The position numbers and the translations under genes were made by a program. From positions 56,417 to 120,416 of the forward strand of contig JAPLYL010000008.1 of assembly GCA_026395595.1 (NCBI GenBank): a stretch of 64,000 nucleotides of DNA, in the 5' to 3' direction. The notes below the pieces were generated by a model. That model had not been told where the DNA came from. It saw only the letters and a program-made list of their open reading frames with translations, and ran no database searches. Positions 1-31,095 of this stretch are shown here, one piece after another; positions within the stretch are counted from its first letter, which is position 1; each line of letters starts with the position of its first letter. The DNA comes from Candidatus Parcubacteria bacterium (GTDB lineage: Bacteria > Patescibacteriota > Minisyncoccia > Phycocordibacterales > CAIJYI01).

Positions 1-99
1 TTTTTCATATGAAATAAATAGACTTAAAATATAATCTACATTTACAGTATATCATTGATTTCAAAAAAAAAGAAAAAGGTTGGGGATAAACAGGACAAC

Positions 100-123
100 A
101 AAAGACCCCTTTCGGGGCCTTTC
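100..123 (-). terminator. Rho-independent terminator downstream of pilin gene
   Basis: On the minus-strand transcript AGGCCCC-GAAA-GGGGUCU forms a 7-bp stem followed by a U-run. It lies immediately 3' of the pilin stop. Confidence 0.5.
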
Positions 124-135
124 GAGAAACTGTTT

Positions 136-2227: not shown

Positions 2228-2281
2228 ATATCAAAAAAACGAATCATTTGTTTAGAAATTAGGAATTAGATATTAGAAATT
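2188..2281. repeat. Intergenic imperfect inverted repeat built from GAAATT/AATTTC units (family member 1 of 3)
   Basis: aatttctaattactaatttccaatttctaa ... ttagaaattaggaattagatattagaaatt are near-reverse-complement arms flanking ccaaatatcaaaaaa. It lies between pilT and pilC. Confidence 0.6.
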
Positions 2282-2283
2282 TT

Positions 2284-3351: not shown

Positions 3352-3360
3352 AATTTTTAT

Positions 3361-3759: not shown

Positions 3760-3857
3760 ATTTTTATATATCAGTAATAGTAAATTAAAGGTTTCTTTAA
3801 TTATAACAAGAAATAAGTAAAAAAGAAAAATTCACCAACAGACCCGTCAACTTTTTA

Positions 3858-11432: not shown

Positions 11433-11521
11433 CGGAGAGGTGGGTGAGCACGGTCGAAACCACCACACTGCTAACGTGGCAGGGGGTAAAACCCCTCGAG
11501 GGTTCGAATCCCTCCCTCTCC
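11433..11521 (+). tRNA. tRNA-Ser (anticodon GCU), class II with long variable arm
   Basis: Acceptor GGAGAGG/CCTCTCC with discriminator G. D stem GGT/ACC. Anticodon loop CTGCTAA. Variable arm GGGGGTAAAACCCC. T arm GAGGG-TTCGAAT-CCCTC. Confidence 0.85.
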
Positions 11522-11533
11522 GCAGTAAGTTTT

Positions 11534-11556
11534 TAGTATCGGAAGACCCGAGTGCC
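11534..11556. repeat. 23-bp direct repeat (copy 1) agtatcggaagacccgagtgcct, 13 bp after tRNA-Ser; putative island junction
   Basis: An exact second copy lies at 29682..29704. It contains the RACCCGAGTR core, which occurs at least 7 times in the window. It is embedded in a partial palindrome aagaccc...gggtctt. Confidence 0.7.
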
Positions 11557-11592
11557 TTGATATTCAAGGGTCTTTTGAATCACTGGAATCTC

Positions 11593-11628
11593 AAAAAGTT
11601 CGAACCTTTATGGGGTTCGAACTTTTTG
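11593..11628 (-). terminator. Terminator hairpin after the 1098-aa helicase gene
   Basis: Perfect palindrome aaaaagttcgaacc-tttatgg-ggttcgaacttttt. Confidence 0.6.
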
Positions 11629-11641
11629 TTACTTCGGACTA

Positions 11642-14600
11642 TTATTCACTGCAAATCACGTCAAGGTCAACGCCCACTGTTTCTTTAAGATAGCTATGTG
11701 CGGCCGCTAAAATCGCTGTTTGATCTGGTGTATGGTTGGTTTTTGATAATCCCGGTTGAACGATAATGATCTCAGCCCTGATTTCCTTGAATCTGCTTAT
11801 CTTTACAAATTTATTCATATCAGCTGATGAACCCAACAAGAAGCGAGTAACTCTTTCTTCGTTTGTGAGACGCTTTTCTCTGTCTAATATATGTTTGCAT
11901 AAATCCTTGAACTTCCATTTCCATTTAGCCGAACGGACCGCTTGCGAAGAAACCTCTACAACATCGCTAATACGTTCACCTGCTGTAGTTTCTGTTGTAA
12001 ATTTACAGTGAATTAAAGCTAATCTAATATGATCATCTTCCTCTTTGAAACAGACTAGATCGGCAGCCTCTCCTGCACCATCGTCATCAAATACTGTTTC
12101 AAAATTTCCAGCAATAAACTGTTGAGCGGCTCGCCATTGTATGGAATCTTCTCTTTGCGCTCCGTTCTTCCAAATAGACTCTTTGCGCAAATCAACACCC
12201 ACCCAATCCCACGCCTCAAATCTTTCTTCTGGGAAAATGAGTTCCTGGGTGTTTTGTGGCTTAATAAGTAGGTTGCCATCAAGTTCAGAAATATCAACGA
12301 ATCGAATCATTGGGGGATAGTTTGAAAAATATTCTTCAATCGGAAGTACTAAATTTCCAACTCGAATAGTAACCTGCTCTTGAGAGTTTTTTGTAACCTT
12401 AAAACCTTCATCACCACCAACAGTTAGTGACAGGTTTAACCAAACATCTTCAGGATCCGTAACTAACCTAAAATAAACTTGGCTGGTCACAATATCAGTT
12501 TTTATAAACTGAAGGTCAAACAATGAGACCGATTTTTCAATTCCTCCTTTTTTTAGAATGACTCTTTCTTCCGATTGCCTAATAATTTCAAGTGGCCATT
12601 CGATACTAAGAACCTGCTTGTCGGGTAACGCGGTTACTTCTTCGGGAATAAGCACGTTTGCAATAATATCAGCAGTATCTATGTTTCCATCTTTAATTTT
12701 TCCACCAACAGATTCACACCATTTGATAAGTTCAGGTATTGAACCTGGATCTCTGGCCCACACACGTCCTTTGTAAGAACAACCTATCGTTACAGGTTCT
12801 CCATTTTCCCAACCCGTGCCACTTAGATTGGATTTAACGGAACCGGCTCGTTCAGAAACGCTGAGCGCTGTTGCCACATCTGAACCGGTATACATTGCGT
12901 ATCGTAGATTGCGTCGGCCGTGTTTTGTCACCCCAACGTTTTGGAAGATTAATCTGTTAATTCGTCCAAGTGCGCGAAATATTATGTCTCCAGAAACGAG
13001 TTTTGTTGCACCAATAGCCCCGGCTATCTTTTCATGATTTGAAGATTTGTCGCTGGAGGAAACGAATAACAGATTGCGAGCTTCATCAAAATGAAAAACG
13101 TGTAAATCCCATATACGATCGCGAAGCTTTCGCGATCTTGTCCATCGAATCGGAGATTCAAGCCTTGTCACAAAATACAAAGTGTTTGATTCTTCATGAA
13201 TCCATACGCGATGCACATTTATACCCCTGGGTATTCCCTCAAAAAACTTTTTTGGCGTAAATGAATTTGCCTCATACATCAATGTACTAAATGTTGGACG
13301 CAACAAATGGTGGGATATTTCTATCTTTTCTTCATCTTCAGAGTTATCAAGAACTTCAGATGCATTCAAAAATGCAATGAGCTCGGAATGAGTCTTTGCC
13401 GCATCGGAACTAAATTCACTTAACAACTGATTCCAGTCAGCATCTTCACTATATAATCGCTCAAGAGCAGATGAAACATCTTGATCGGCAATGTTTGCTA
13501 CTACTGTGGCATCGCCGATTGCTTCACCAGCAGTTCGGGTAAATCTTCCCGTAAATTGAAGTAGAATTGCAAGACTTTTATGTGTATCATGAACAGCCGC
13601 AATTTTCAGTTGAGGTAAATCAAAACCTTCCCCAAGCATGTTTACACAAATAACGATACGACTCTGTCGAGATCTAATTTTTTCAATTGAAGCATCGGTT
13701 TCATCTTCCTCTGAGTGAATAAGAACGGGATTAAGGTCTGGTGCGATTCTATCATAGATAGCGTAGATAGTTCTGGCTCGACCAATACTGGCACATCTTG
13801 CCATCATAAGATGATCTTTTCCAGAAGCGAGGTCTCTTCGAAGTATTTCTACACCTTTTGTGGCAATTGCCTCATCGGCGTTTTCTTGGTCAATCTCATA
13901 TACAGGTTCAAAATTTATATTCTTGAAATACCCATCGTTTTGTGCTGAATGCAATGGATACTCATAAATAACTTTCCCATCAACAAGTTTCCCATCTCTT
14001 CGATAAGGGGTCGCTGTAAACTGCAAAACTCTGTTATCTTTAAACTTTTCTCGAAATGCACCCCACCCAACTGCTCCAACATGATGAGCTTCATCAACTA
14101 TAAGCGTCTTCACATAATCAGCAATAGGAAGAGGTGTATCACCAGAAGAATCGCTTTCCATTACGCTCATCGTCGCGATAACAACATTACATTTATTAAA
14201 AATATCTAAATCTTCTTCCGACTGAAGCCTTTTTTTGATTACTCCAACAATAGGATTTTTTGCTTCAGATGAAAGATTACCAAGGGACCGAAGTAGTCCG
14301 AGAGTAAGAAACTTTTTTGCTGTTTGGTCGCGCAACACTTTTGATGGAACAACCACGAGTAAACTTCCTGTCGAATAGGCAACGAGAGTTGCAAGCATAG
14401 CTTCTGTCTTTCCTGTGCCTGTTGGCATGACAATCGTAGCTGGTTGTTGATACAAACTCCAGTGAGCACCTATTGAATGAAGACTTCCGATTTGTGGTGG
14501 CCTTAATCCTTTTTTAGTTACAGTACCGACAAGGTCTTTTTCTTCGGATTGAAAATTGAATTTTCCATACCAGCTTTCAGTTATGTCTTTCGAAACTTTT

Positions 14601-14938
14601 TCTAAACCACCCTCGTCGACATCATATTTTAGAGCATTTAATTTTCGGTGTGCTATCCACTTCAACGCGTTTCCGAGTTGACCAAAAAGAACTCCATCAA
14701 CATCTCGAGGTAGTTCAAGTTTCTTCTTTTTTGTAATGAGTATTTTTTGACCGTCATCGAGAACATATAGAGTTTCTCTAACTCTTGGAGACGTAAAAAA
14801 TTCCTCAGTCCTGGATATGACTTTATTACCGCCTAAATCTAATACATGAGAAATAATGCCGATAGAATGCTTAATAGGCCCGAATTCTAATGGCGGGAGG
14901 AATAGCATATTCGGATTTTCTGGGTTTGAAGGGCTCAT
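11642..14938 (-). CDS. Large SF2 (ResIII/DEAH-type) helicase fused to an about 500-aa C-terminal domain of unknown function; defense-island-type protein
   Basis: Motif I MPTGTGKT, motif II DEAHH, motif III TATP and motif VI QFTGRFTR are in the N-terminal half. The C-terminal half has no recognisable family apart from a possible degenerate PD-(D/E)xK-like segment (ADLVCF...LALIHCKF). Confidence 0.7.
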   Translation of the reverse strand: MSPSNPENPNMLFLPPLEFGPIKHSIGIISHVLDLGGNKVISRTEEFFTSPRVRETLYVLDDGQKILITKKKKLELPRDVDGVLFGQLGNALKWIAHRKLNALKYDVDEGGLEKVSKDITESWYGKFNFQSEEKDLVGTVTKKGLRPPQIGSLHSIGAHWSLYQQPATIVMPTGTGKTEAMLATLVAYSTGSLLVVVPSKVLRDQTAKKFLTLGLLRSLGNLSSEAKNPIVGVIKKRLQSEEDLDIFNKCNVVIATMSVMESDSSGDTPLPIADYVKTLIVDEAHHVGAVGWGAFREKFKDNRVLQFTATPYRRDGKLVDGKVIYEYPLHSAQNDGYFKNINFEPVYEIDQENADEAIATKGVEILRRDLASGKDHLMMARCASIGRARTIYAIYDRIAPDLNPVLIHSEEDETDASIEKIRSRQSRIVICVNMLGEGFDLPQLKIAAVHDTHKSLAILLQFTGRFTRTAGEAIGDATVVANIADQDVSSALERLYSEDADWNQLLSEFSSDAAKTHSELIAFLNASEVLDNSEDEEKIEISHHLLRPTFSTLMYEANSFTPKKFFEGIPRGINVHRVWIHEESNTLYFVTRLESPIRWTRSRKLRDRIWDLHVFHFDEARNLLFVSSSDKSSNHEKIAGAIGATKLVSGDIIFRALGRINRLIFQNVGVTKHGRRNLRYAMYTGSDVATALSVSERAGSVKSNLSGTGWENGEPVTIGCSYKGRVWARDPGSIPELIKWCESVGGKIKDGNIDTADIIANVLIPEEVTALPDKQVLSIEWPLEIIRQSEERVILKKGGIEKSVSLFDLQFIKTDIVTSQVYFRLVTDPEDVWLNLSLTVGGDEGFKVTKNSQEQVTIRVGNLVLPIEEYFSNYPPMIRFVDISELDGNLLIKPQNTQELIFPEERFEAWDWVGVDLRKESIWKNGAQREDSIQWRAAQQFIAGNFETVFDDDGAGEAADLVCFKEEDDHIRLALIHCKFTTETTAGERISDVVEVSSQAVRSAKWKWKFKDLCKHILDREKRLTNEERVTRFLLGSSADMNKFVKISRFKEIRAEIIIVQPGLSKTNHTPDQTAILAAAHSYLKETVGVDLDVICSE

Positions 14939-15002
14939 TTTTGGGTGACGTGAGATAAGATTTAGATTTCATCACCACCACATTTTATCACTTTTGCAAG
15001 AT

Positions 15003-16328
15003 CTACGCTATTGTCACCACCCCCTTCGTAACTTTAATTTTTGACTTAAAACACCCCATCAATTCTCTCTTCTCTTCGTTCGTCCCTTCTCGGAGAATAT
15101 ATTGGGCGTACGTTTTTGAATCTATTTCCTTGTAGGTTTCTTTTGGGTTTGTCATTCCGAGCACCTTTCTTTGAAATTTGTTCATTCGTTTTAATTCCTC
15201 ATCAAATTTATGTTTGATGCCGAGATTATTGAAGTCTATTTGATCCAGTACTTTTAAAAGTTGTTCAACTAATTCTTCTTCTCGAAGGTACTGACATTTG
15301 CAGTGCCTGTCTTTTGACCTTCCGCATCCATAGTAAATGTATTTTGCGGTCGTTCCATCTTTGAGTACTTTATATTTCTCTTCGGCTGAAATTCCTGATC
15401 CACACAATCCACAGACCATAAGTTTTGTAAAAGCGAATTCTTTGCTTTGTCGATGAATATCATCTCGTTTCAACTGTTCTTGAACTTTATCAAAAAGTTC
15501 TTTTTCAATGATCGGTTCATGTTTTCCGGTATACCAGTTTCCGGACTTTTTCGGGTATTCAAAAACTCCGTAATAAAACGGATTCGATAATGCCCGGTAA
15601 ATATTTCCAAGAGCGACATTATGATTTCCTACCGATTTAAAATTGAGTTCAAATTTTAACCATTGATGAATTTTTCGCCCCGACCATTTTTCATAAGCGA
15701 CTTTTTCATACATTTTTTTAACAATAGGAGCCCTGTCTGGATCTATGGTAACTTGGCATTTTCTATCAATTCTTTTTTCGTTCAAATATCCAAGCGGAGC
15801 GATTCCCGGCCACAGCCCCATTTCAACCCTCGTCCGAAGCCCGCGCTTTACGTTTATTCCGCGATTGTCATTTTCAAGCTTTGCCTGAGATCCAAGAATC
15901 ATCAACAAGAATTTTTCGTTTGGATTATTCCGGAAGCTTTGGCTGAATGTTCGAATCTCTACCAGTTTTCCTGCATCCATCAAGTCTACGATTTTTCCGA
16001 GATCTCCCGCATTACGACTGATACGATCCGGCGCCCATGTCAGAATCCCAGTAAACTTCCCGGCACGTAATTCTTCAACAATCTCATTAAATACAGGCCG
16101 TTGTCCAGTTTCCTTCGCCGAGTGCGATTCGCGCTTCATTGTTACGACCTCTAACCCTTCCCGATCCGCCAGTTGGAGCATTTCCTTAATCTGGCTGTCT
16201 ATTGAAAGCACCTGTCTTTCCTCTGATTCGGTACTCTTTCTCGCATAAAGGCAGTATTTTACCGCCGTTGGAACCTCTATTTTAGCCCTGGTTCCCGCTG
16301 GCATTTGCATTGTTTCCATATGTCTCAT
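15003..16328 (-). CDS. Large serine recombinase (resolvase catalytic domain + recombinase domain + zinc ribbon)
   Basis: YARKSTESEERQ...SIDSQ catalytic Ser region. LTWAPDRISRN. GLWPGIAPLGY recombinase domain. CGLCGSG...YYGCG zinc ribbon. Confidence 0.9.
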   Translation of the reverse strand: MRHMETMQMPAGTRAKIEVPTAVKYCLYARKSTESEERQVLSIDSQIKEMLQLADREGLEVVTMKRESHSAKETGQRPVFNEIVEELRAGKFTGILTWAPDRISRNAGDLGKIVDLMDAGKLVEIRTFSQSFRNNPNEKFLLMILGSQAKLENDNRGINVKRGLRTRVEMGLWPGIAPLGYLNEKRIDRKCQVTIDPDRAPIVKKMYEKVAYEKWSGRKIHQWLKFELNFKSVGNHNVALGNIYRALSNPFYYGVFEYPKKSGNWYTGKHEPIIEKELFDKVQEQLKRDDIHRQSKEFAFTKLMVCGLCGSGISAEEKYKVLKDGTTAKYIYYGCGRSKDRHCKCQYLREEELVEQLLKVLDQIDFNNLGIKHKFDEELKRMNKFQRKVLGMTNPKETYKEIDSKTYAQYILREGTNEEKRELMGCFKSKIKVTKGVVTIA

Positions 16329-16447
16329 TAATGACGCAACCCTCCTAAGGAGTCCAGAGCGACCCGAGTAGGTAACTTTTGCACAAAATATCCGTTTTAC
16401 TTTAATGAAAATTAAGTGTAAACTTATGTTAAGTTAACACTTTTGCT

Positions 16448-16633
16448 ATGACTACATCAAACACGGGAGATATCATTACGCTTAAGGAGGCATGCGAACT
16501 GCTGAACTGTCATCCGAATACCCTGCGAAAATGGGATAACTCCGGTTTCTTGAAAGCGATCCGTTTTGGTGCACGGCGCGACCGGCGGTATCATCGTGCC
16601 GATATTGAGAAATTAATTTCCCAAAAAACATAA
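16448..16633 (+). CDS. Small HTH DNA-binding protein (excisionase/MerR-like HTH_17); candidate RDF or controller
   Basis: ITLKEACELLNCHPNTLRKWDNSG helix-turn-helix. Length is 61 aa. It is the first gene of the MTase operon and lies next to the recombinase. Confidence 0.6.
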   Translation: MTTSNTGDIITLKEACELLNCHPNTLRKWDNSGFLKAIRFGARRDRRYHRADIEKLISQKT

Positions 16634-16635
16634 TT

Positions 16636-17751
16636 ATGAAAGATAAAGTTTCAAACGCCAGCCTTCATGGGGCAAAAAAAGCAAAGAAAGATGAGTTTTA
16701 TACTCAGCTTGTTGATATTGAAAAAGAATTGAAACATTATAAAGATCAGTTTCGTGGCAAGGTGGTATATTGCAACTGTGATGATCCATTTGAAAGTAAT
16801 TTTTTTAAGTATTTTGCCGCTAATTTCAATGCTCTCGGGTTGAAAAAACTTATCGCCACGAGTTACAAGCCATCCCCCATAGCCAATACACAACTGGGAC
16901 TATTTGGCGTAGATAAAGTACTTGCTTCACCAAAAGGACGCCCCAAAGTAACCGCTAACAAATTTATTATCAATGAGGTTAGTGACATAGACGGCGACGG
17001 TGCATTTGATTTACGTGACGTTGCCGAGCAACTTAAGGCTAATAAAAACAATGAGTGGGCCCCATTAGAAGATGAAGGAGATTTTAGAAGTAAAGAAAGC
17101 ATAGAACTGCTAAAGCAGGCTGATATTGTCGTAACTAACCCGCCATTTTCGTTATTTCGGGAATATATTGCACAGATTGTAGAATACGACAAAAAGTTTT
17201 TAATTATCGGCAATATAAATGCGGTTACTTATCAGGAATGTTTTAGACTTGTTCAAAATGATAGAATGTGGCTCGGGGCAAGTATTCATAGCGGTGATCG
17301 TGAATTTCGCGTTCCGAATGATTACCCGCTTGAAGCCGCGGGTTGTAGAGTGGACGAGAGCGGTAATAAATATATCCGCGTCAAAGGTGTCCGTTGGTTT
17401 ACGAATTTGGATTATAAAGAACGTCATGAAGATTTAGTATTGTACAAAAAATACACACCAGAAGAGTATCCTTTATACGACAATTATAGTGCAATTAATG
17501 TTGATAAGACGGCCGATATTCCAATGAGTTACGTTGGGGAGATGGGTGTTCCGATTACATTTCTTGATAAATACAATCCTGATCAATTTAAAATTGTAGG
17601 TGCTCTAATATCTGGCCCACTTGGGCATGAATTGGGAGCAACTAAAACGCAACAGATTAGACCGAACGGAAAGACAACATTGGAATACGGACCAATTATC
17701 AACAAAAAAGGATATTATGGAAGAATTGTTATTAAAAACAAGAAAATATGA
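16636..17751 (+). CDS. N6-adenine DNA methyltransferase (NPPF motif; EcoRI-methylase-family-like)
   Basis: Motif IV VVTNPPF and an upstream CNCDDPFESNFF motif I-like region. The stop overlaps the next gene's start (ATGA). Confidence 0.65.
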   Translation: MKDKVSNASLHGAKKAKKDEFYTQLVDIEKELKHYKDQFRGKVVYCNCDDPFESNFFKYFAANFNALGLKKLIATSYKPSPIANTQLGLFGVDKVLASPKGRPKVTANKFIINEVSDIDGDGAFDLRDVAEQLKANKNNEWAPLEDEGDFRSKESIELLKQADIVVTNPPFSLFREYIAQIVEYDKKFLIIGNINAVTYQECFRLVQNDRMWLGASIHSGDREFRVPNDYPLEAAGCRVDESGNKYIRVKGVRWFTNLDYKERHEDLVLYKKYTPEEYPLYDNYSAINVDKTADIPMSYVGEMGVPITFLDKYNPDQFKIVGALISGPLGHELGATKTQQIRPNGKTTLEYGPIINKKGYYGRIVIKNKKI

Positions 17752-18854
17752 AAATTGAACTAAACAGAATTAAAATACGCGAAGTAATAGAAGAATACAA
17801 AGACAGCGCCGAGGAGGGTGTTGTGGCTTACGGTGGCAAACTTGATGTTCGTCCAAAATATCAGCGTGAGTTCGTCTACAAAGACAAGCAGCGAGATGCG
17901 GTTCTTGATACTATCAAAAAAGGATTCCCACTCAACGTCTTGTACTGGATGGTGCGTGAAGATGGCGGTTATGAACTACTCGATGGACAACAGCGAACGA
18001 TTAGCATTGGTCAGTATATCAGCGGTGACTTTTCGCTAGATGACCGTTATTTTCACAATCTCACAAAAGAAGAACAAGAGCAGATATTGAATTACGAATT
18101 GATGATTTATTTCTGCGAAGGTACAGATAAAGAAAGACTGGGCTGGTTCAAAACTATCAATATCGCGGGTGAAAAATTAACAGATCAGGAATTACGCAAC
18201 GCCGTTTACACTGGCCCGTGGCTTTCTGACGCAAAACTAAAATTCAGTAAATCAAATTGCGCCGGATACCTTTTGGCAAATGACGGTGGCACATTACTCA
18301 CCGGTTCGCCGATCCGGCAAGAATATCTGGAAACCGCACTTTCTTGGATCAATGATGACGAAGTGGCGGGCTATATGGCAAAACACCAGCACGACAAAAA
18401 CGCAAATGAATTGTGGGAGTATTTCCAAAATGTCATTGCTTGGGTACGAAAAACATTCACAAACTATCGCAAAGAAATGGCTCATGTAAACTGGGGCGAA
18501 TTGTACAACGAATTTAAAGATAAGAAGTTGGATTCAAAAAAGTTGGAAGCTGAAATCTTTAAATTGATGCAAGACGAGGACGTAACGAAAAAATCCGGTA
18601 TCTATCCTTATGTTCTCACAAAGCAAGAAAAACATCTTTCCATACGTGCATTCAACGATAAAATGAAACGCGAAGCATACGAGCGACAGGAAGGAATTTG
18701 TCCGCATTGCAAAGGAGAGAATAAGAAAAAGAAATGGGAAATTGAAGAAATGGAAGCCGATCACGTCACCCCATGGCACGAAGGTGGTAAAACGACCGCG
18801 GAAAATTGTCAGATGTTGTGTAAAGAAGATAATCGACGGAAATCGGGGAAATAA
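17748..18854 (+). CDS. DUF262 (ParB/Srx-like DGQQR NTPase) fused to C-terminal HNH endonuclease; GmrSD/BrxU-like
   Basis: DGQQRT motif in the N-terminal domain. C-terminal CPHCKG...ADHVTPWHEGG...NCQMLCKEDNRRK is the HNH signature. Translationally coupled to the MTase. Confidence 0.75.
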   Translation: MKIELNRIKIREVIEEYKDSAEEGVVAYGGKLDVRPKYQREFVYKDKQRDAVLDTIKKGFPLNVLYWMVREDGGYELLDGQQRTISIGQYISGDFSLDDRYFHNLTKEEQEQILNYELMIYFCEGTDKERLGWFKTINIAGEKLTDQELRNAVYTGPWLSDAKLKFSKSNCAGYLLANDGGTLLTGSPIRQEYLETALSWINDDEVAGYMAKHQHDKNANELWEYFQNVIAWVRKTFTNYRKEMAHVNWGELYNEFKDKKLDSKKLEAEIFKLMQDEDVTKKSGIYPYVLTKQEKHLSIRAFNDKMKREAYERQEGICPHCKGENKKKKWEIEEMEADHVTPWHEGGKTTAENCQMLCKEDNRRKSGK

Positions 18855-18857
18855 GCC

Positions 18858-21059: not shown

Positions 21060-21127
21060 GGCTGTAAGTGGTAATAGGTGAATCAAACAAAAAGGAACTC
21101 ATTAAGTTACTTTGTCTTCGTTGAAAC

Positions 21128-21140
21128 GGGGGGGGGGGGG
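21128..21140. repeat. Homopolymeric G13 tract in convergent intergenic region
   Basis: 13 consecutive G in an AT-rich genome. Possible slipped-strand site or assembly artefact. Confidence 0.6.
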
Positions 21141-21175
21141 CGAATATCGTGGAAAATTATGCATTGAAAATTGTC

Positions 21176-24040: not shown

Positions 24041-24194
24041 GATAGGTGATTCAAAAGTATCACACTATAAGCAATGCGTCAAAAAAGTTTTCTATTTAGA
24101 TCCGACAAAACTTGTTGATAACCACCCCTTCGCAACCGCTTCTTTTTAAGCTAAGGTACATGGACTAATAGTACTTTTTGCGCTATTATGTTCA

Positions 24195-24426
24195 TTGACA
24201 ACTGAATATTCTGGTCGGAAGACCAGGTACCTAACCCCGAAAGATTTTCTTTCGGATATGGTACGGAATCCCATGGAAGACACTGAACCCTGCGTTCAGC
24301 GACTCTTCCATGGGTCATATCGGGAAACTGGTATGGGACCGAAAGGTCTAGCTGGCGCAGGGTTCAGTGTACCCACTGTTTCTCTCGCCAGCTACTTAAT
24401 AGCTGGTTTTTATTCTCTCTAATAAT
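24195..24426 (+). promoter_or_regulatory. GC-rich highly structured leader ending in terminator hairpin directly upstream of ORF 24427 (riboswitch/attenuator or sRNA candidate, class unknown)
   Basis: Nested palindromes ccatggaaga...tcttccatgg and ctgaaccctgcg...cgcagggttcag. Terminal ccagcta-cttaat-agctgg plus TTTTT sits 10 nt before the ATG. The 75-aa ORF here is not credible. Confidence 0.4.
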
Positions 24427-25173
24427 ATGCCCTTCAAAGAGTACATAAGTAATCACCCCGATCTTGTTCGGGAACGAATTCATAATTTTTTAGGATACGG
24501 AAATCTCTTAGGCGACATTTGGTTCGTCGGAATGGAAGAAGGAGGCAATGAGACGCCAGAAATTCTGCTGTCTCGTTTTCTCGCCACCTCGCAAGGGAAA
24601 ATGTTCGACATTTATGATGATATGCGCGAACATCCGGATCATATGCGTTGGTTCAAAGAAAATGCACCAACGCAGGCGACATATCGAAAACTTATTTATC
24701 TTTTACTGTTCCTCCGTTTGGGAAAAGAGCCTTCCCTCGGAGACATTCGCGAGTATCAAATAAAGAGCTTCGGAAGAAAATCGTCCGATCACGCGGTTTT
24801 GGAACTCATGCCGTTACCGTCAAAAACAATAGACAAAAAAGACTGGAGATATGGTGATCTCGGTATCGAAGAACTTTCTTCTCGGAAAAAGTATCTTACC
24901 GAATTCAAATCCGACCGTGTGGAACTTTTCCGATCGCTCGTTGAAGATCACAAGCCGAAGCTTGTAATCTTTTATTCTCTTGGATATATCAAAGACTGGC
25001 AGAAAATTGCTGAAACGCCTTTTACGGAAATAATTCCGAAAAAACTATTAATCGCGCAAAGAGACGGAACCACCTTCGTTGTGGTTCCGCACTCTGTCGC
25101 GAGAGGACACTCAGATGAATCATGGAGATCTATCGTCGAAGGCATTATATCTGCTCATCCGTTTTCTTCATAG
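24427..25173 (+). CDS. Hypothetical protein (248 aa), no recognisable domain
   Basis: Clean ORF preceded by the structured leader. No motifs recognised. Confidence 0.5.
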   Translation: MPFKEYISNHPDLVRERIHNFLGYGNLLGDIWFVGMEEGGNETPEILLSRFLATSQGKMFDIYDDMREHPDHMRWFKENAPTQATYRKLIYLLLFLRLGKEPSLGDIREYQIKSFGRKSSDHAVLELMPLPSKTIDKKDWRYGDLGIEELSSRKKYLTEFKSDRVELFRSLVEDHKPKLVIFYSLGYIKDWQKIAETPFTEIIPKKLLIAQRDGTTFVVVPHSVARGHSDESWRSIVEGIISAHPFSS

Positions 25174-25540
25174 GTACCGTATAAATATTTAACTTGGTAA
25201 TCGGAGGAACGAACTCGCTATCGGGCGTTTTCTGATTCTTTGTTTGGTAGTCCGGATGGCATCTCTCGAGTTGGAATTTCACGGCTTGCATATTGTTCTG
25301 CTGGATATTTTGGATAAGATGCGTATGAGCAAGATCATTCACGAAGCTTTTTCCAAGGTTGATAGCATTATCCGCCTTAAGAGCAAATGGCCGTTCCTCT
25401 TTCCATGTGTAGAAAGTTTCTCGACTAATACCGGCTCGTTTGCAGGAATACCATATATTTCCCGAATCGCGGAGAAATTCAAGTACTTTTTCTTGCATTC
25501 TATGAGTCCTCTCTTTCACGTCTGATGATTTTTTCGCCAT
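25145..25540 (-). CDS. Phage terminase-small-subunit-like HTH protein
   Basis: SCKRAGISRETFYTWKEE resembles TerS/insertion-element HTH. It is adjacent to the ParB-MTase as in phage packaging modules. The true start may be the internal Met (MQEKV...) abutting the MTase stop. Confidence 0.5.
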   Translation of the reverse strand: MAKKSSDVKERTHRMQEKVLEFLRDSGNIWYSCKRAGISRETFYTWKEERPFALKADNAINLGKSFVNDLAHTHLIQNIQQNNMQAVKFQLERCHPDYQTKNQKTPDSEFVPPITKLNIYTVPMKKTDEQI

Positions 25541-26288
25541 GTCCGGTAAGTTTTTTCCAGCGTTCCACTATCGTCGCGCAATATTCAGGTTCGATTTCGA
25601 CCATAACGCAACGTCTCTTCGTCTGCTCGCACGCAATAAGCGTTGAGCCACTACCGCCGAAGGGATCGTATACGCAATCGTTCACACTGGTGCTGTTAAG
25701 AATGATTTTCCTCAAAATCCCGATCGGTTTCATCGTCGGATGAAGTTTGCTTCGGGACGGTTTCGGAGCGAAGATGACTGATTTGTCTTTTCCTCTTTCG
25801 AATTTATGCGTTCCTTTCCAACCGTAAAGGATGAGTTCGTGCTGGGGAAGGTAATCGAGCCGTCCGATGATTGCTCGGTCTTTTACCCAAATAATCAGCT
25901 GGGATACTTTCACGCCAAGGTCTACGAACGCTTGCCTGAGGGAGAAAATCATCTTGTCACAATTGAAGACGTAAATGCTATTCTTTTTTGAGAGGTGCGG
26001 AAGAATATTTTTCAGCCATCCTTTCGTGAAATCGGCATACTCCTCGTCGCTCATAAGCCCATCGTTTTCAATATCTTTGTCGACAGAAATTTCTTGCATT
26101 CCTCGCTTGCTCGCAACGTAATCAATCGCATACGGCGGATCTGTCAGAATCAAATCGATTGTACCTTTCAGAATCTCGCGGAGAGGAACCGTCTTTGCCT
26201 CTCCGCAAACGAGAATGTGATCGCCGAGAGTGATAATGTTGCCTTTCTTAATCGAGTTGCTTCGCTTTGTGTCCGGTGAATTTTTCAT
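25500..26288 (-). CDS. DNA methyltransferase (N6/N4 beta-class, DPPY motif)
   Basis: ILTDPPY motif IV precedes C-terminal FDPFGGSGSTLIACE motif I, which is the beta-class order. Length is 262 aa. Confidence 0.85.
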   Translation of the reverse strand: MKNSPDTKRSNSIKKGNIITLGDHILVCGEAKTVPLREILKGTIDLILTDPPYAIDYVASKRGMQEISVDKDIENDGLMSDEEYADFTKGWLKNILPHLSKKNSIYVFNCDKMIFSLRQAFVDLGVKVSQLIIWVKDRAIIGRLDYLPQHELILYGWKGTHKFERGKDKSVIFAPKPSRSKLHPTMKPIGILRKIILNSTSVNDCVYDPFGGSGSTLIACEQTKRRCVMVEIEPEYCATIVERWKKLTGHGEKIIRREREDS

Positions 26289-27522
26289 ATCGGTTGATGA
26301 TGAGCTGGCAAAAGATAGGGCTTTTTTCGACCAAGAATGCCCGGCGTTTCATTTGTTCGCAAGCGAGAAGTGTGGAACCGCTTCCTCCGAATAGATCAAG
26401 TACGTTATCGCCGATTTTTGTGCATCGGTTTAGAGGTCGCTCATGAAGAGAAAGCGGTTTCTGTGTCGGATGTTCGTACTCGTCACCCGAAATGCGTTTC
26501 GCGAGCCAGATGTCGATCATGTCGGTGATATCGTCGATTGTTGCGTTTCCGATTCCAATGTCTTTGTTAAGAATCTCCGCGAATTTCGTGTGCTTTGGCG
26601 AAAGATAGGGTTTTCCGGTCGTTCCGTAAACGCAGGGTTCATAAAGCTTAGAGAACGCTACCTGAGGTGTCACATTGATTCCGTTTTTAACCCAGAGTGC
26701 CGTGCGTTTGTATCCGATACCTAGTTCTTCGAAAAGCATTTGAAGCATGCCGACATATTTTTGATCGCAGTACCAGAAGTGGTGGGCGTTTTCCGCACTT
26801 ACGGAAAGGGCGCTTGTCATCGCTTTGCGGAGAAACTCGCGATATTCGACATCGGTCTTCTTGTCGTCGACATCTCCGCCGTAATTCGCCTTTCCGCCAA
26901 GACCTTTATTGTAGTCGAGCGAGATATTGTAAGGCGGATCGGAATAAGCCATATCAATTTTGTGATTTCCGACAAGACGTTTCGCGACCGCTTTGTCCGT
27001 ACTATCTCCGCAGATAAGGAAGTGATCGCCGAGAGAGAAGAGATTTCCTTCTTTGATGTCCGTTTTCTTCGCTTCTTCCATTTCCTTCTTCTCATCGAAA
27101 TCGTCATCTTCAATTTCGAGAACATCGTCCCAAATGTTCGAAAGGTCGGTATCGTCAAAGCCGATGTCGAGAAGAAATTCAGTATCGAACGCTTTCAGTA
27201 GGTCGTAATCCCACGAGCCGGTGTTCTTGTTGCTTCGGAGAAGGTACTCTTCACATTCCTTCGTCGTGAGCTTCCGATTCGGAACGCGGACGTCGATTTC
27301 TTCTTTTCCGCGACCGAGTGCTTGCATAATTCGGAGGCGGGCGTGTCCCGCCAAAATGCCGTTGTCTGTATTGATGGCCGGGATTTCGACCAAGTTATAT
27401 CTATTAATACTTGTTTCGAGGTCTTTCCGCTCTTTATCGGAAATCTTCCTCGGATTCTTGGCGTGCGGGATGAGATCATCGATCTTTCTCGTTTCCGTAC
27501 TCCAGACTAATGCTTTTTGCAT
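26248..27522 (-). CDS. ParB-like nuclease domain fused to DNA methyltransferase (phage-type orphan MTase)
   Basis: N-terminal ParB/Srx-like region (NPRKISDKE...EIPAIN...GHARL), then SDPPYNI and LDLFGGSGSTLLACE. Confidence 0.85.
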   Translation of the reverse strand: MQKALVWSTETRKIDDLIPHAKNPRKISDKERKDLETSINRYNLVEIPAINTDNGILAGHARLRIMQALGRGKEEIDVRVPNRKLTTKECEEYLLRSNKNTGSWDYDLLKAFDTEFLLDIGFDDTDLSNIWDDVLEIEDDDFDEKKEMEEAKKTDIKEGNLFSLGDHFLICGDSTDKAVAKRLVGNHKIDMAYSDPPYNISLDYNKGLGGKANYGGDVDDKKTDVEYREFLRKAMTSALSVSAENAHHFWYCDQKYVGMLQMLFEELGIGYKRTALWVKNGINVTPQVAFSKLYEPCVYGTTGKPYLSPKHTKFAEILNKDIGIGNATIDDITDMIDIWLAKRISGDEYEHPTQKPLSLHERPLNRCTKIGDNVLDLFGGSGSTLLACEQMKRRAFLVEKSPIFCQLIINRYEKFTGHKAKQLD

Positions 27523-27925
27523 ATTGGTTTATATGCTATCTAATACTTAGAGACTCGTGATCTTGTCGAAAGAATCGCAAATCTCGCAGCTTTTTCTTAA
27601 CGCTATCTTAATTATATCAGGCGCATATTTTTGCCTCGTATTTTTTCGCAAGATTATGTAAAAAAGTCATATTTTAAGGTGTATTATTCGTTTCAAAACT
27701 ATTAATTTTCGCGTTCAAAACGCATTAAAAACACCTCAAAAATTGAATTTCTTTTGATTTTTTTTAAGGCGAAAAACGGTGTTCAAACCACCCCGAAAAG
27801 GCGAAATACTTCCATATATCGCCATGTATTTCGGTAAACTGCTGAATACCGTAGAGTGTGTCAGATTTGTAAGGTAGCCGACTCGCGTGCTGGAAGATTA
27901 AAATCATGCTAATATTGCTTTACTT

Positions 27926-28558
27926 ATGGAAAACATTTGGATTTCAATCGCTCTTTCGTTGTTAACCGGTGTGGTTTCCAGTTCCTTGGTTGTTTTGTAT
28001 TTTGAGCTACGACACCAAAAAATGCACGCCCTTTCACGCGCGCATATTCTTGAACGATTTTCTCGAGAGCTATTTCATATACTCACAGCGGTCAGGATTG
28101 CTTCTAATCTCAAATTAAAAAACACAGCAACAAGCAAAGCCGAAATGGTTAAAGAATTGGAACAAATTTTGGGAAGAAATACCCTTACGATTCTTCTGGG
28201 GAGAATTTCTAATCTGTCTCCCAAACAACACCAAGTCTTACTCAACGAGCTGATTTTAGCCCACTCCTCTTTGTCTGTTTTATTTTCTCAGTCCATAGGC
28301 CATAAAACACTGGAAGATCGCATTGCGGCATCAATGGCGGAAACACAAGAGTGGATTGATTCCGTTTTAATTTACTACACTACGTATCCTGAAATTATTG
28401 ACGGGACAGCTGATCAGACAATCCACATGGTTTGGATGACAAGCGTTTTTAACCTTGTCGAAAATTCCTTTGCGATTCTCAATGACGTAGTAAAGGCTCA
28501 AACATTATCTGAGGGGGCATTACGTTGGGGCAGTCGTAGTTCAAAACACGGTTCTTAA
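27926..28558 (+). CDS. Hypothetical protein with N-terminal TM helix
   Basis: ORF of 210 aa with a hydrophobic N-terminus. No motifs. Confidence 0.45.
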   Translation: MENIWISIALSLLTGVVSSSLVVLYFELRHQKMHALSRAHILERFSRELFHILTAVRIASNLKLKNTATSKAEMVKELEQILGRNTLTILLGRISNLSPKQHQVLLNELILAHSSLSVLFSQSIGHKTLEDRIAASMAETQEWIDSVLIYYTTYPEIIDGTADQTIHMVWMTSVFNLVENSFAILNDVVKAQTLSEGALRWGSRSSKHGS

Positions 28559-28571
28559 TAAACTGTATATT

Positions 28572-29543
28572 ATGTTTTGCACAAACTGCGGAAACAAAAC
28601 ATATGCGGAAGATAACTTCTGCGGAAATTGCGGTAAAGCGAACAAGCGTACCAGTGTTTCAGGTGTTGAAAAACCATCTCCTAAAATAGAACCAAGACCG
28701 AGATCTCCAGCGTGTAAAGAACCAGAATATACACCGCCACCTATCCAACCTACTCGTAGTATTAAAGGTGAAGCAAGGGACGAAAAGAAAAAACAGGAAC
28801 GCAAAGAAGAATTGAGAAAGTTATTAGAGAGAGAGCGAGGACGAGAAATTTCCGATCAGGAACTCTTTGATGCAGAACTTTGGCTCACCAACTACGCCAA
28901 TCTGATGTATGACTTTGCCAAAACAGATTTTCAGAGAAAAACAAAGTTAGAAGAAAATCCAAAAGGTTTCCCTCTTGAAGGAAAAGGATATACCTGCGGC
29001 ATCTGTCACAACTCTATCTCAGACGAACAGACATGGTATGACCAAAACGGTCTCAAATGTTTAACCTGCCAGGATGCGTTAGATAAAAATATCATTCCGG
29101 TTTCAGTTATTATTGATCGTGAAAGTTGGTATTCAGTAAGTGATTTTGAAAGTAGTTTCTTTATGAAGCCAAATGCGGTGAGGAGATTCGTAAAAGAGGG
29201 TCTGTTAAAACCACGAATCATTTCAAATGCCTCAGGAAAAACTCACTTCCAATTATTTCTTATCGAAGAGCATGAAGGTATCTTGCCTCCTAAAGAAGTG
29301 ACGAAATGGCCAATGGTTAAATTTAAGAAAAATGGCAAAGTCTACTATCATTCAGAACCGTGGTTTATGCATAAAGATCCTAAAGAAGCTCTGGGAAGTT
29401 ACAAGATATCGGAGTACATGGCGACCCTGAAAGAGAACGAGATAAAGCAGTCATATCCTGATCTAAGCTTTGAAATGCACCTGGGATCAGAGTCTATATT
29501 AAAGATTGATTATATTGATGAAAAGCCAGAAAGTGCCGAGTAG
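28572..29543 (+). CDS. Zinc-ribbon domain protein (two CxxC...CxxC modules), hypothetical
   Basis: N-terminal CTNCGN...CGNCG, then a charged/Pro-rich linker, then CGICHN...CLTCQ. Confidence 0.5.
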   Translation: MFCTNCGNKTYAEDNFCGNCGKANKRTSVSGVEKPSPKIEPRPRSPACKEPEYTPPPIQPTRSIKGEARDEKKKQERKEELRKLLERERGREISDQELFDAELWLTNYANLMYDFAKTDFQRKTKLEENPKGFPLEGKGYTCGICHNSISDEQTWYDQNGLKCLTCQDALDKNIIPVSVIIDRESWYSVSDFESSFFMKPNAVRRFVKEGLLKPRIISNASGKTHFQLFLIEEHEGILPPKEVTKWPMVKFKKNGKVYYHSEPWFMHKDPKEALGSYKISEYMATLKENEIKQSYPDLSFEMHLGSESILKIDYIDEKPESAE

Positions 29544-29574
29544 CGTCTCTTTTGTCTCATTTTCAAAAAAATGA

Positions 29575-29704
29575 GTATAGTGACCCGAGTGCCTCGACAT
29601 CACAGCCAAAAGTGCGCTAAAATACCCTTACTGGGCTTAGACTCGCTGGTACTTAACCCGAGTGGCCCGCCATAAGAAAGAAGTATCGGAAGACCCGAGT
29701 GCCT
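29575..29704. repeat. Cluster of three RACCCGAGTR motif copies including 51-bp cassette repeat (copy 1) and 23-bp direct repeat (copy 2)
   Basis: gtgacccgagtgcc at about 29581. aataccctta...gtacttaacccgagtggcccgcc at 29621..29671. agtatcggaagacccgagtgcct at 29682..29704, identical to 11534..11556. Confidence 0.7.
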
Positions 29705-29709
29705 AAAAT

Positions 29710-30243
29710 ATGCAAAAGAAACAAACCACAATTATATTATTTCGAGGTCGCCCAGGCGTTGGAAAAAGCACTATTTCTAACGCATTCGCGAAAAAGGAGA
29801 ATATGCCGGTTCTTAGAAAGGACGATATTTATGATGCCGCCGCAACCTATGTAGAAGACCATGGGATACGAAACAAGATCAGTTACGATTCGCTGTTCAA
29901 GATGCTTGAGTCTAATATATCCTCAGAAACCTCTCTAATTCTTGATTACCCTTTCCAAAGGGACGAAGAGGTCTTAAACCTTCAGAGGTGGTGTAAAGAG
30001 CGAAATTTGCAACTCGTTTCGGTATTGGTGGTTTGTTCTGATCGAGAAATTTGGAAAAGTCGTTTTAATGTTCGTTCACAAAATCCAACGCCAAACCAAC
30101 TCATTACAGATTTAGATGAATTGGAGCGACACTATGGTGATTTAATTCTAAAACCCCTCGAAGATGAAATTGTCATTGACACTGTTGAATCCATCGAAAT
30201 CATCCTAAAACAGTTGGCGACCCGAGTACCCCGGGAGGGCTAG
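29710..30243 (+). CDS. Small P-loop kinase / AAA_33-like NTPase (zeta-toxin/gluconate-kinase fold class)
   Basis: Walker A ILFRGRPGVGKST. Length is 177 aa. Flanked by about 51-bp direct repeats. Confidence 0.6.
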   Translation: MQKKQTTIILFRGRPGVGKSTISNAFAKKENMPVLRKDDIYDAAATYVEDHGIRNKISYDSLFKMLESNISSETSLILDYPFQRDEEVLNLQRWCKERNLQLVSVLVVCSDREIWKSRFNVRSQNPTPNQLITDLDELERHYGDLILKPLEDEIVIDTVESIEIILKQLATRVPREG

Positions 30244-30257
30244 AGAAAAAACTTTGA

Positions 30258-30309
30258 AATACCCTTATGGTGTCTTGTCCGCCATAGTACTTAACCCGAG
30301 TGGCCCGCC
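30258..30309. repeat. Cassette direct repeat copy 2 (aataccctta...gtacttaacccgagtggcccgcc)
   Basis: The 23-bp 3' part is identical to 29649..29671 and the 5' aataccctta is shared. The middle diverges. Confidence 0.65.
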
Positions 30310-30314
30310 CGTAC

Positions 30315-30342
30315 AAAAAATAGCCCCGAGGGGCATTTTTTG
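30315..30342 (+). terminator. Terminator after kinase cassette
   Basis: gccccg-a-ggggc hairpin preceded by an A-run and followed by a T-run. Confidence 0.55.
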
Positions 30343-30540
30343 TTGGGAAGAGAGGAGCGAGTGCCCTGCGGCACTCGCGCGAGGGATTCGAAGAGGTTGA
30401 GTCTGTCGCAACGAGCCGAGGTCGGCGAAGTGAGACACGAAACCTATACCGCTCCTGTAAGGAGAGAAATTCCCTCCCTCTCCGTCAGCCCACACACCAA
30501 TGACGAATGTGTGACTCGGCTACCTCATAAATTGTAAATA
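30343..30540 (+). other. GC-rich structured non-coding segment containing a tRNA-Ser 3'-end-like stretch (tccctccctctccg); candidate attachment-site remnant or unclassified ncRNA
   Basis: Perfect hairpin gcgagtgcc-ctgc-ggcactcgc. cgagggattcgaa resembles the tRNA-Ser T-arm. A 14-nt exact match to the tRNA-Ser 3' end sits at about 30469..30482. Hairpin cacacac...gtgtgtg. ORFs on both strands are implausible. Confidence 0.35.
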
Positions 30541-30627
30541 AAAACAACGACTTTTTCGGTCGCTGTTTTTATTTTTATAAAAATCGGTTCTTCAATAAAG
30601 TCAATTTTTGAGATATAATAAGAACCT

Positions 30628-31095
30628 ATGACTTCGTACAAACACACTCAAATCAGTTACCTGATGATAGTTGTTACGCTTATGGTATTAGCTCTTTTTT
30701 CATGGGCTTATATCACCGCTCGGGCAGAACCGCCATCGGTTGACTCCGGCACAAATCTGCTCGTTACATCGATAATGGCATTCGTTCTGTTTCTTCTTGC
30801 GTCGCTTGTAACACTAACAGCGTCCATTGATGAAAAATATCTTAAGATTAAATTTGGTTATGGAATTTTTAGAAAAAAATTTTCTCTTAATGAAATAGTC
30901 TCAGCAAAGCAAGTAAAGAATCATTGGTATTACGGCTGGGGCATAAAATTCTGGTTATGGCCAAAAATGTGGATATATAATGTTTCCGGTTTTGATGCGA
31001 TTGAAATAACTATGAAGAATGGAAGAATTTATCGTATAGGAACGAATGACCCAAAAATACTTGAGACCGCCATTAAACAAACGATAAAAATTTAG
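30628..31095 (+). CDS. Hypothetical membrane protein (two TM helices)
   Basis: Hydrophobic N-terminal segments. Length is 155 aa. Confidence 0.5.
   Translation: MTSYKHTQISYLMIVVTLMVLALFSWAYITARAEPPSVDSGTNLLVTSIMAFVLFLLASLVTLTASIDEKYLKIKFGYGIFRKKFSLNEIVSAKQVKNHWYYGWGIKFWLWPKMWIYNVSGFDAIEITMKNGRIYRIGTNDPKILETAIKQTIKI

Follow-up and report, generated by a model that had tools for sequence, protein, structure and literature searches.

Two elements probably stacked in tandem by a large serine recombinase at the 3′ end of a tRNA-Ser gene in a Candidatus Parcubacteria bacterium

Introduction

Transfer RNA genes are places where foreign DNA may settle, and the locus described here raises the question of what has entered between a tRNA-Ser gene and its native 3′ neighbour in a Candidatus Parcubacteria bacterium, in how many pieces and by which route. 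The window, that is, the whole stretch of 64,000 nucleotides that was analysed (GenBank assembly GCA_026395595.1, contig JAPLYL010000008.1, positions 56,417 to 120,416 of the forward strand), had been described in a sequence-only reading as carrying a single accessory island of about 19 kb, bounded by exact 23-bp direct repeats, marked by a recurring RACCCGAGTR motif and served by a large serine recombinase (LSR). Our analysis leads to another picture, which we consider probable: the interval would consist of two tandem, site-specifically integrated elements of one family, A and B, at the 3′ end of tRNA-Ser(GCU) in this tiny-celled member of the Patescibacteria. Each has a short conserved box (S) at its left end and a longer conserved module (U) at its right end, and the LSR would have joined the U|S junction of a circular element to the tRNA|terminator junction of the host.

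Several mobile elements offer points of comparison. The staphylococcal cassette chromosome (SCC, SCCmec) depends on the Ccr LSRs, occupies the 3′ end of rlmH/orfX, builds up in tandem and includes recombinase-less cassettes with the same short direct repeats. Canonical LSRs act on attachment (att) sites of about 40-50 bp, which have about 2 bp in common. The tycheposons of Prochlorococcus lie beside tRNA genes, including tRNA-Ser, where they are stacked by successive integration; they carry defence and adaptive cargo, some resemble phage-inducible chromosomal islands (PICIs) with terS, and they are flanked by partial tRNA copies, with 910 of 937 recombinases of the tyrosine type and a minority of LSRs (bioRxiv 10.1101/2020.12.28.424599).

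Results

An insertion between tRNA-Ser(GCU) and its terminator

The flanking ABC-F protein, compared with species-representative genomes, finds matches exclusively in Patescibacteria, also known as the Candidate Phyla Radiation (CPR). The nearest belongs to ‘Ca. Nomurabacteria Ike-200m-9’ (96% amino acid identity) and the next to KR_bin-0332 (83%); these and the other related CPR loci compared with the window bear L-numbers as labels (L002 and L003 for these two, L083 and so on for others). L003 is free of the island, and its tRNA-Ser(gct) (4119-4207) is followed by a terminator hairpin and then by a tRNA-like structured RNA, here called TLE (4249-4390), all in about 270 bp. The same tRNA-Ser in the window (11434-11523, + strand; called by ARAGORN, 50.5 bits with the Rfam tRNA model) lies 18.8 kb from the homologues of the terminator (30314-30341, +) and of the TLE (30347-30488, +). 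This terminator hairpin, the native 3′ neighbour of tRNA-Ser, is matched in position and sequence in L003 and L154.

Because L003 joins tRNA-Ser directly to terminator and TLE, and because its post-tRNA sequence CCGCC|TGTATTAAGAAATGCCC aligns with CCGCC|CGTACAAAAAATAGCCCC after position 30309 of the window, the interval 11524-30309 is inserted DNA relative to this empty site. The presence of an integrated island beside tRNA-Ser is thus confirmed by comparison with an island-free relative, and the left arm of the integration site (attB/attL) is formed by the 3′ end of the tRNA, GGTTCGAATCCCTCCCTCTCCGC.

Two left ends and two right ends

The 23-bp repeat exists as described, AGTATCGGAAGACCCGAGTGCCT being present exactly twice, at 11535-11557 (one position later than first given) and at 29682-29704. 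Two matches are found in 0 of 100 shuffles, and there is no third copy in the window at up to 3 mismatches. The first copy begins 11 nt after the tRNA, where a gap of 13 nt had been counted. The role given to the pair does not hold, since the repeats are not the bounds of a single island but the left-end S boxes of two tandem elements, and the insert runs 605 bp further, to 30309. Element A (11524-29671; 18,148 bp) contains the LSR, a restriction-modification (R-M) system, PDC-S06, a DinG-like helicase, the LOOT RNA, a TerS-like gene and two methyltransferases (MTases), whereas element B (29672-30309; 638 bp) has an S box, one AAA_33 kinase gene and a U module, with no LSR.

The S box of element A (S1; 11524-11557, +) consists of the spacer A-GTAAG-TTTTT and the 23-mer, and that of element B (S5; 29672-29704, +) of ATAAGAAAGA and the identical 23-mer, both having the start form TAAG..AGTATCGGAAGACCCGAGTGCCT. 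The second 23-mer sits 11 nt after the CCGCC of U1, the U module of element A, just as the first sits 11 nt after the CCGC of the tRNA, and S5 forms with U1 a U|S junction that resembles an attP site. Across the family, the S box reads CCGC(C/A), a spacer of about 10 nt and TATCGG-N2-4-GACCC... A search of 2.2 Mb with the regular expression TATCG[GT]-N2-5-[GA]ACCC listed 46 non-redundant matches, about 33 of them 10-12 nt past a ...CCGC(C/A) 3′ end. The left partner is a tRNA T-arm/acceptor end in about 19 cases, a U 3′ end in about 11 and a TLE 3′ end in 2, always at equal spacing. The attP-like U|S junctions of equal spacing number about 10-11 in other loci, and one of them adjoins an LSR in the IMG/VR contig L082.

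In L083, 25 of 25 nt (AGTATCGGAAGACCCGAGTGCCTTG) are the same as in the window, after a different tRNA-Ser; DNA identity is 77% for the LSR gene and 79% for the tRNA. Between TATCGG and GACCC, the spacer measures 2 nt where the LSR is at least 77% identical, and 4 nt in the clade at 67-70%. No other observation speaks as clearly for a reading of S by the LSR as this tracking of LSR relatedness, and the box appears to be under selection together with its LSR clade. One element in L133 has at its left end (14237-14793, − strand) a pair of S boxes, 540 nt from each other; what precedes the second is not a tRNA but a sequence ending in ...CACTGCC, which suggests the remnant of a further unit.

The right ends are more extended. 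In U1 (29545-29671, +), two TGTCNCATTT-like repeats are accompanied by three boxes, namely GACCCGAGTGCC on the 5′ side (29582), CTAAAATACCCTTA in the middle and GGTACTTAACCCGAGTGGCCCGCC on the 3′ side, the last reaching up to the junction. U2, which closes element B (30219-30309, +), provides the last inserted bases, CCGCC (30305-30309). The two are units of about 90 nt that have in common a 5′ GACCCGAGTR, a middle AAATACCCTTA and a 3′ GTACTTAACCCGAGTGGCCCGCC. When metagenomes were scanned with ACCCTTA-N10-30-TACTTAACCCGA, U was found in more than 120 contigs (a lower bound), mostly in one copy each. An alignment of 64 copies is made of invariant blocks and of variable spacers of fixed length, with conservation ending sharply at CCGCC(A); family modules measure about 95-130 bp, with two TGTCNCATTT repeats upstream, a sequence that shows no enrichment in the window. 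In its last 24 bp (GGTACTTAACCCGAGTGGCCCGCC), U is similar to the target tRNA over the T-arm and the 3′ strand of the acceptor (GGTTCGAATCCC-N7-CCGCC), the U arm GGTACTTAACCC-N7-CCGCC matching the tRNA arm at 8 of 12 positions with equal spacing.

U modules are physically linked to element genes and, for this reason, are read here as element-borne end modules and not as host genes. In 22 loci, the strand opposite to U encodes, 1.3-2 kb upstream of the module, a ParB-like nuclease fused to an MTase (ParB-MTase, about 440 aa). By tblastn, 33 loci have ParB-MTase, 28 have MT262 and 22 have the TerS-like protein. The module is missing from the empty site of L003.

What the recurring motif stands for

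The recurrence of the motif is equally real: RACCCGAGTR and the 8-mer ACCCGAGT occur 7 times each, all on the + strand (11546, 16362, 29583, 29656, 29693, 30220 and 30294), where chance would give 0.2 and 0.9 copies in the window, respectively, and 0 of 100 shuffles reach 7. The sequence-only reading had itself raised a genome-wide dispersed repeat as the competing possibility, and none is seen in about 1.4 Mb of related CPR loci, with at most 1-2 copies per 20-kb locus. Of the seven copies, two belong to S1 and S5 (the second 23-mer), and four to U1 and U2, one in each 5′ box and one in each 3′ box. The seventh, GACCCGAGTA (16361-16370, +), belongs to the 5′ leader of the LSR gene; this leader is conserved in L083, which holds the closest related element, where the motif reads GTCCCAAGTA and the copy at 16362 has the counterpart TCCCAAGT. 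One chance 8-mer is expected per window, and the seventh copy is probably unrelated to the end boxes.

The proposal that ACCCGAGT is the recombinase or crossover core is very probably wrong. Family-wide, the exact 8-mer is found in about 40% of S boxes; for U, the share is 25% at the 5′ box and 57% at the 3′ box. Only GACCC and AACCCGA are constant in the boxes, and the 8-mer represents the lineage-typical form of three different conserved boxes. When the junctions are aligned, only about CCGCC, from the tRNA 3′ end, is common to the attB, attL, attR and attP-like sites. The other half of the same claim, which made the LSR the recombinase of the island, stands: related LSRs with the same ends are found at tRNA-Ser genes in independent contigs, and the protein is very probably the recombinase of the island.

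A recurrent element with a conserved core and variable cargo

The layout tRNA-Ser | S ... LSR(−) ... ParB-MTase(−) ... U(+) recurs in independent contigs: L091 (tRNA-Ser gct, 6.3 kb), L189 (tRNA-Ser tga, 12.4 kb), L133 (tRNA-Ser cga, 14 kb) and L083 (tRNA-Ser gct, partial). The gene content announced for the island, namely an LSR, a small helix-turn-helix (HTH) protein, defence genes, MTases and a TerS-like protein, was recovered with Pfam, PHROGs and PADLOC. The LSR (15003-16328, −; 441 aa) has the Resolvase, Recombinase and Zn_ribbon_recom domains (PF00239, PF07508 and PF13408, each above cutoff) and matches the integrase family phrog_95; its relatives in the PDB are the SPbeta YokA/SprA, A118 and TP901-1 integrases. 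According to tblastn, homologues 58-88% identical occur in many S/U loci.

The conserved core module (24427-27522), assigned with Pfam and PHROGs, starts with orf248 (+) and continues with a TerS-like HTH protein (25145-25540, −), an N6_N4 MTase (25500-26288, −) and ParB-MTase, which combines a ParB-like nuclease with an N6_N4 MTase (26248-27522, −). Just before it lies a LOOT RNA (RF03000; 24228-24349, +), detected by Rfam at 84 bits against a threshold of 46.4, over model positions 1-121. LOOT is present in 7 of 15 related element loci searched with Rfam (L108, L189, L133, L145, L198, L090 and L208), upstream of the orf248/TerS-like/MTase block where it was mapped, and this recurrence beside the block makes it a core component of the LSR elements. 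Nothing useful on LOOT was found in the literature. A second LOOT copy of the window (47151-47266) has no orf248/TerS-like/MTase module beside it. In comparison with PICIs, the conserved core pairs the TerS-like HTH protein with the ParB-like nuclease-MTase, and no primase/replicase, capsid or repressor was recognised in the interval.

The remaining genes of element A form its cargo. Between the S box and a convergent helicase gene there is a bidirectional terminator hairpin (11592-11629; fold z = -5.0), with a TTCGAA-containing counterpart after the S box in L083 and L082. The convergent gene encodes a ResIII/DEAD helicase of 1098 aa (11642-14938, −; by Pfam, PbeA-like in PADLOC, helicase in PHROGs), whose homologue is absent from the related elements compared. 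Divergent from the LSR gene is that of the small HTH protein (16448-16633, +; 61 aa), an HTH_17/excisionase-like product according to Pfam and PHROG excisionase families; it had been put forward as a directionality factor, a role that receives no support from the related elements, where the gene is not conserved. It is followed by three genes of defence cargo identified with Pfam and PADLOC, for an EcoRI-type MTase (16636-17751, +), a GmrSD_N/HNH type II restriction endonuclease (17748-18854, +) and a candidate defence ATPase of the AAA_13 type that matches PDC-S06 of PADLOC (18858-21059, +). The same programs identify a DEDDh exonuclease fused to a DinG-like helicase (21176-24040, −). The R-M, PDC-S06 and helicase cargo was found in element A alone among the related elements compared. 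Two further cargo ORFs, or open reading frames (27926-29543, +; 210 aa, and 323 aa with a zinc ribbon by Pfam), precede U1.

Cassettes with one gene and no recombinase

Element B is an example of a much smaller kind of unit. Its only cargo is an AAA_33 kinase-like gene (29710-30243, +; Pfam) that starts 6 nt past the S box and whose last codons overlap the 5′ box of U2. At least 16 non-redundant S...U units without an LSR were found, of 0.16-3 kb, one of them (156 bp) being devoid of any ORF. In 14 of the 15 units that do contain one, the longest ORF reads from S towards U; its start is usually 7-83 nt past S and its stop, in about half of the units, at the U 5′ box. Recognised cargo comprises HIT, SET, RelA/SpoT, LD-carboxypeptidase and EryCIII/UDPGT-type glycosyltransferase proteins, the last being of the macrolide type. 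A near-perfect replica of the right end of the window is found in L154 (440-1420), with the order tRNA-Ser(cga) | S | HIT-family ORF | U | terminator | TLE | S; here a one-gene cassette lies directly at the tRNA, and a further S box comes immediately after the tRNA-like 3′ end of the TLE. Scans of viral collections for the 23-mer, the U 3′ box and U|S junctions gave only L082, L083 and two chance matches.

A structured RNA that shadows its tRNA

A 14-nt copy of the tRNA-Ser 3′ end near 30.47 kb had been taken for an older or nested integration boundary. The copy itself is there (TCCCTCCCTCTCCG, 30471-30484, an offset of 1-2 nt from the position first given), and it is the 3′ end of the TLE at 30347-30488. 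As the TLE is native downstream of the tRNA in the island-free L003, the tRNA-like piece is not a scar. A covariance model derived from 8 copies delimits the TLE of the window, in which the first 7 nt (5′) and the last 15 nt (3′) reproduce the tRNA-Ser acceptor and T-stem strands. Among the compared loci there are 16 distinct copies, directly 3′ of tRNA genes (Ser, Leu, Val and Gln) or directly after U, including two in L003 (4249-4390 and 2364-2504, the latter on the − strand), two in L154 (1234-1381 and 8872-9017) and two in L205 (478-622 and 738-849).

In six tRNA/TLE pairs, the first 7-8 nt and the last 15-17 nt of the TLE repeat the neighbouring tRNA, the copied 3′ end being made up of the discriminator and of the 3′ strands of T-stem and acceptor. 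Inside, the TLE is unlike a tRNA, with an 8-bp hairpin that usually has a CUGC loop, GGGAUUCGAA, a variable insert and a UGUAA-loop hairpin. Compensatory changes occur in 18 of the 18 modelled pairs, in an alignment fitted to the model; paired cells amount to 92.5%, against 38-49% with slid partners, and the covariation score is 0.68, against 0.08-0.17, with 0 of 500 shuffles as high. ARAGORN calls no tRNA in the TLE and Rfam gives no match at E ≤ 10, only the acceptor-like and T-stem-like strands being common to tRNA. The idea of a degenerate tRNA-Ser or tmRNA at 30.34-30.49 kb was tried, and pairwise alignment was uninformative. Judging from covariation and position, we regard the TLE as a host-side structured RNA of about 140 nt and not as an integration scar. 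Its tRNA-like 3′ end can apparently serve as a secondary attachment site, as the S boxes of L154 and L205 suggest.

Elsewhere in the window, a weak match to the TLE model (43707-43827; E about 2e-4) has a GUACCGUCCAUGUAAUGGAAG hairpin in common with a TLE of L003; it adjoins one arm of a 50-nt long-range inverted repeat, 84% complementary (771-820 with 43812-43861).

Other signs of traffic near tRNA genes

The nearest relative, L002, holds at this locus (1-3983) a different element of the same family, in which a fragment of ParB-MTase, a U module whose 3′ box has diverged and an S box in degenerate form are present; the L002 locus is without a TLE and without the 155-aa gene described below. 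Since another island of this family occupies it there, the locus counts as a hot spot. Immediately to the right of the TLE, the window has a 155-aa ORF (30628-31095) with homologues 70-77% identical in L102, L184 and L169; as these sit within or just after S...U cassettes, the gene may be former cassette cargo. Far from the island, tRNA-Ile(tat) (55859-55933) lies between two partial copies of itself: a 5′-half copy (55788-55827; 95%) about 30 nt upstream, and a 3′-half copy, which begins with the anticodon (55984-56025; 95%), at about 50 nt on the downstream side. This arrangement (55788-56025) may be a further signature of integration or duplication.

Discussion

How the elements could have been joined

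The empty site, the family architecture, the conservation of the boxes and the classes of junction give a firm frame for a mechanism, in which three parts are inferred: that the LSR acts on S and U, where the crossover lies and which element arrived first. A circular element would offer its U|S junction as attP, and attB would be the tRNA 3′ end followed by the host terminator. The element-encoded LSR would join the two by strand exchange in or beside the common CCGCC, leaving tRNA|S at the left and U|host at the right. The left arms (tRNA, U and TLE) would be near-equivalent, and the right arms would be either S or host sequence; on these terms, a left|S site can recombine with a left|host site, both in integration and in excision. 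Elements could stack at the distal end, because U|host again resembles the target. Element A would have come first, B being added afterwards at U1|host, and on this model the U2|S1 junction would read ...GTGGCCCGCC + (A)GTAAGTTTTTAGTATCGG. Element A, with its LSR, its LOOT/TerS-like/MTase core and its defence cargo, would be autonomous, and element B non-autonomous and presumably mobilised in trans.

Since the conserved stretch of U runs over 95-130 bp, it must do more than bind the LSR. The part beyond the last 25 bp or so could contain an outward promoter for the next cassette, in view of a sigma-70-like match described below, or, equally possible, binding sites for accessory proteins or a packaging site for the TerS-like protein. 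A guide-RNA (bridge-RNA-like) function was also considered and rejected: S equals the U 5′ box of the same element only in the window, the two differ in L091, L189, L133 and L082, and there is no direct-repeat covariation between the U 5′ and 3′ boxes.

Five observations weigh against this scheme. The conserved sequence covers 95-130 bp on one side, whereas canonical att sites measure about 40-50 bp. No recombination directionality factor was identified. The empty site is known from one relative alone, L003, the nearest relative L002 having another island there. No circular junction or excision product was observed, and look-ups of exact proteins gave no other assembly of the element, only an identical 2.3-kb Logan contig, with nothing for the LSR, the 323-aa ORF or a 607-aa flank; the organism is contained in sample SRR20698640. 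Finally, canonical LSRs are not known to target attL, attR or attP-like sites, and tandem growth therefore needs either a relaxed site choice, as in the Ccr recombinases of SCCmec, or homologous recombination between S or U copies.

This last point leads to the rival explanation that survives best, although we find it rather unlikely: the tandem arrangement and its exact repeats would stem from homologous recombination or duplication between S or U copies, and the mini-cassettes would be products of decay. One crossover, with a circular element and a resident one paired at their S boxes, would be enough to produce this map and its identical repeats, U1 and U2 do have long stretches in common, and the reluctance of canonical LSRs to integrate into attL or attR speaks for it as well. 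However, the spacing from S to its left partner is equal for tRNA, U or TLE, and the mini-cassettes are tight and uniform in geometry while their cargo is unrelated, which is not expected of random decay.

Alternatively, U could be the gene of a small host RNA that is used as a target in the same way as a tRNA, with the ACCCGAGT boxes as features of that RNA. Its occurrence mostly as a single copy in so many contigs, its invariant blocks and the S boxes that follow its 3′ end just as they follow tRNAs would fit, as would a sigma-70-like match upstream of U1, where a conserved CTAAAAT block is the putative -10, reading outward to the next cassette; this block is not -10-like in all clades. Yet no consensus fold or covariation was obtained from the 64 copies on either strand with the default scoring of RNAalifold, and RIBOSUM scoring gave only a helix of invariant blocks. 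Mutual information showed no pairing signal in U, the variable 3′ 7-mer has no conserved or acceptor-like partner, U1 and U2 on their own fold no better than shuffles, and Rfam gave nothing credible for U or TLE in 29400-30700 (E ≤ 10) or in four related loci (E ≤ 0.5). Moreover, U has no terminator of its own, is linked to the element core genes in 22-33 loci, is missing from the empty site, and ends every S...U unit, even the cassettes of 0.16-0.6 kb; a host RNA gene is, in sum, an unlikely identity for it.

The original model, a single 18.1-kb island with the 23-bp repeats as att core and ACCCGAGT as recognition or crossover core, has in its favour that the repeats are exact and unique, that no motif copy lies away from the ends and the LSR gene and that excision between the repeats is geometrically possible, but it is very improbable in view of inserted DNA that goes past the second repeat to 30309, of a context for that repeat (U 3′ end, about 10 nt and S) found in about 10 attP-like junctions elsewhere, of an 8-mer that varies across the family and is not conserved at the LSR gene, and of a common sequence of attB, attL and attR that amounts to CCGCC.

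Relation to known systems

Having preferred two tandem insertions by an LSR, we can place the elements among known ones. A tRNA island or prophage driven by a tyrosine integrase was discarded: no Phage_integrase domain is found in the major ORFs of the interval, and the 14-nt tRNA copy belongs to the host TLE. The elements resemble SCCmec in the use of an LSR at the 3′ end of a conserved housekeeping gene, in tandem stacking, in recombinase-less cassettes that are presumably moved in trans and in the lack of an evident dedicated directionality factor. They differ from it in the target, which is a tRNA 3′ end or tRNA-like sequence, in a U end of 95-130 bp, in the CPR host and in cassettes as small as 160-640 bp with one ORF.

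With tycheposons they share stacking on the side of a tRNA gene, defence cargo and, for the tycheposon minority, an LSR. Unlike them, they have S/U flanks with only about 5 bp in common with the tRNA, a LOOT/ParB-MTase/TerS-like core and a host in another phylum; as for the tycheposon hallmarks, no partial tRNA made by insertion was found at this locus, and the hallmark gene profiles were not searched. The LSR has the domain architecture of the large serine integrases of phages and integrative and conjugative elements (SPbeta SprA/YokA, A118, TP901-1, phiC31 and Bxb1), and integration would likewise be unidirectional in type with a minimal common core, but here the target is a tRNA 3′ end instead of a protein gene, phage structural genes are absent, the conserved sequence extends far past a 50-bp attP, and there are tandem arrays and mini-cassettes mobilised in trans.

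The mini-cassettes also recall integron cassettes, being small, mostly single-ORF units on the same strand, apparently promoterless, stacked and diverse in cargo. This is an analogy of organisation only: there is no IntI, attI or attC hairpin, and the LSR is carried by one of the cassettes. An integron proper was rejected, as there is no tyrosine recombinase and U has no consensus fold (RNAalifold default, both strands).

Implications

A full-text literature search returned no description of LSR islands at tRNA genes in CPR bacteria, and what we describe is apparently an SCC- or tycheposon-like LSR cassette system not previously reported in this group. New aspects are the CPR host, the S/U end modules, an LSR that would target both the tRNA 3′ end and the TLE, the tiny cassettes and LOOT as a core gene. 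A wider interpretation, which we offer tentatively and hold to be possible though not the likelier case, is that CPR bacteria have an integron-like, LSR-driven form of gene capture, in which promoterless one-gene S/U cassettes at tRNA 3′ ends would be mobilised in trans by LOOT-bearing LSR masters, with TLEs, a new class of tRNA-shadowing RNA, as landing pads.

The mobile elements of CPR bacteria are poorly charted, and the S/U pair of ends, which is easy to recognise, would let the gene flux of such reduced genomes be mapped from metagenomes. LSRs with compact targets at tRNA 3′ ends may interest the developers of integrases. As for the two RNAs of the locus, the TLE is a structured RNA that shadows tRNAs, with strong covariation and no Rfam family, and the orphan LOOT RNA gains a genomic home as a core gene of LSR elements.

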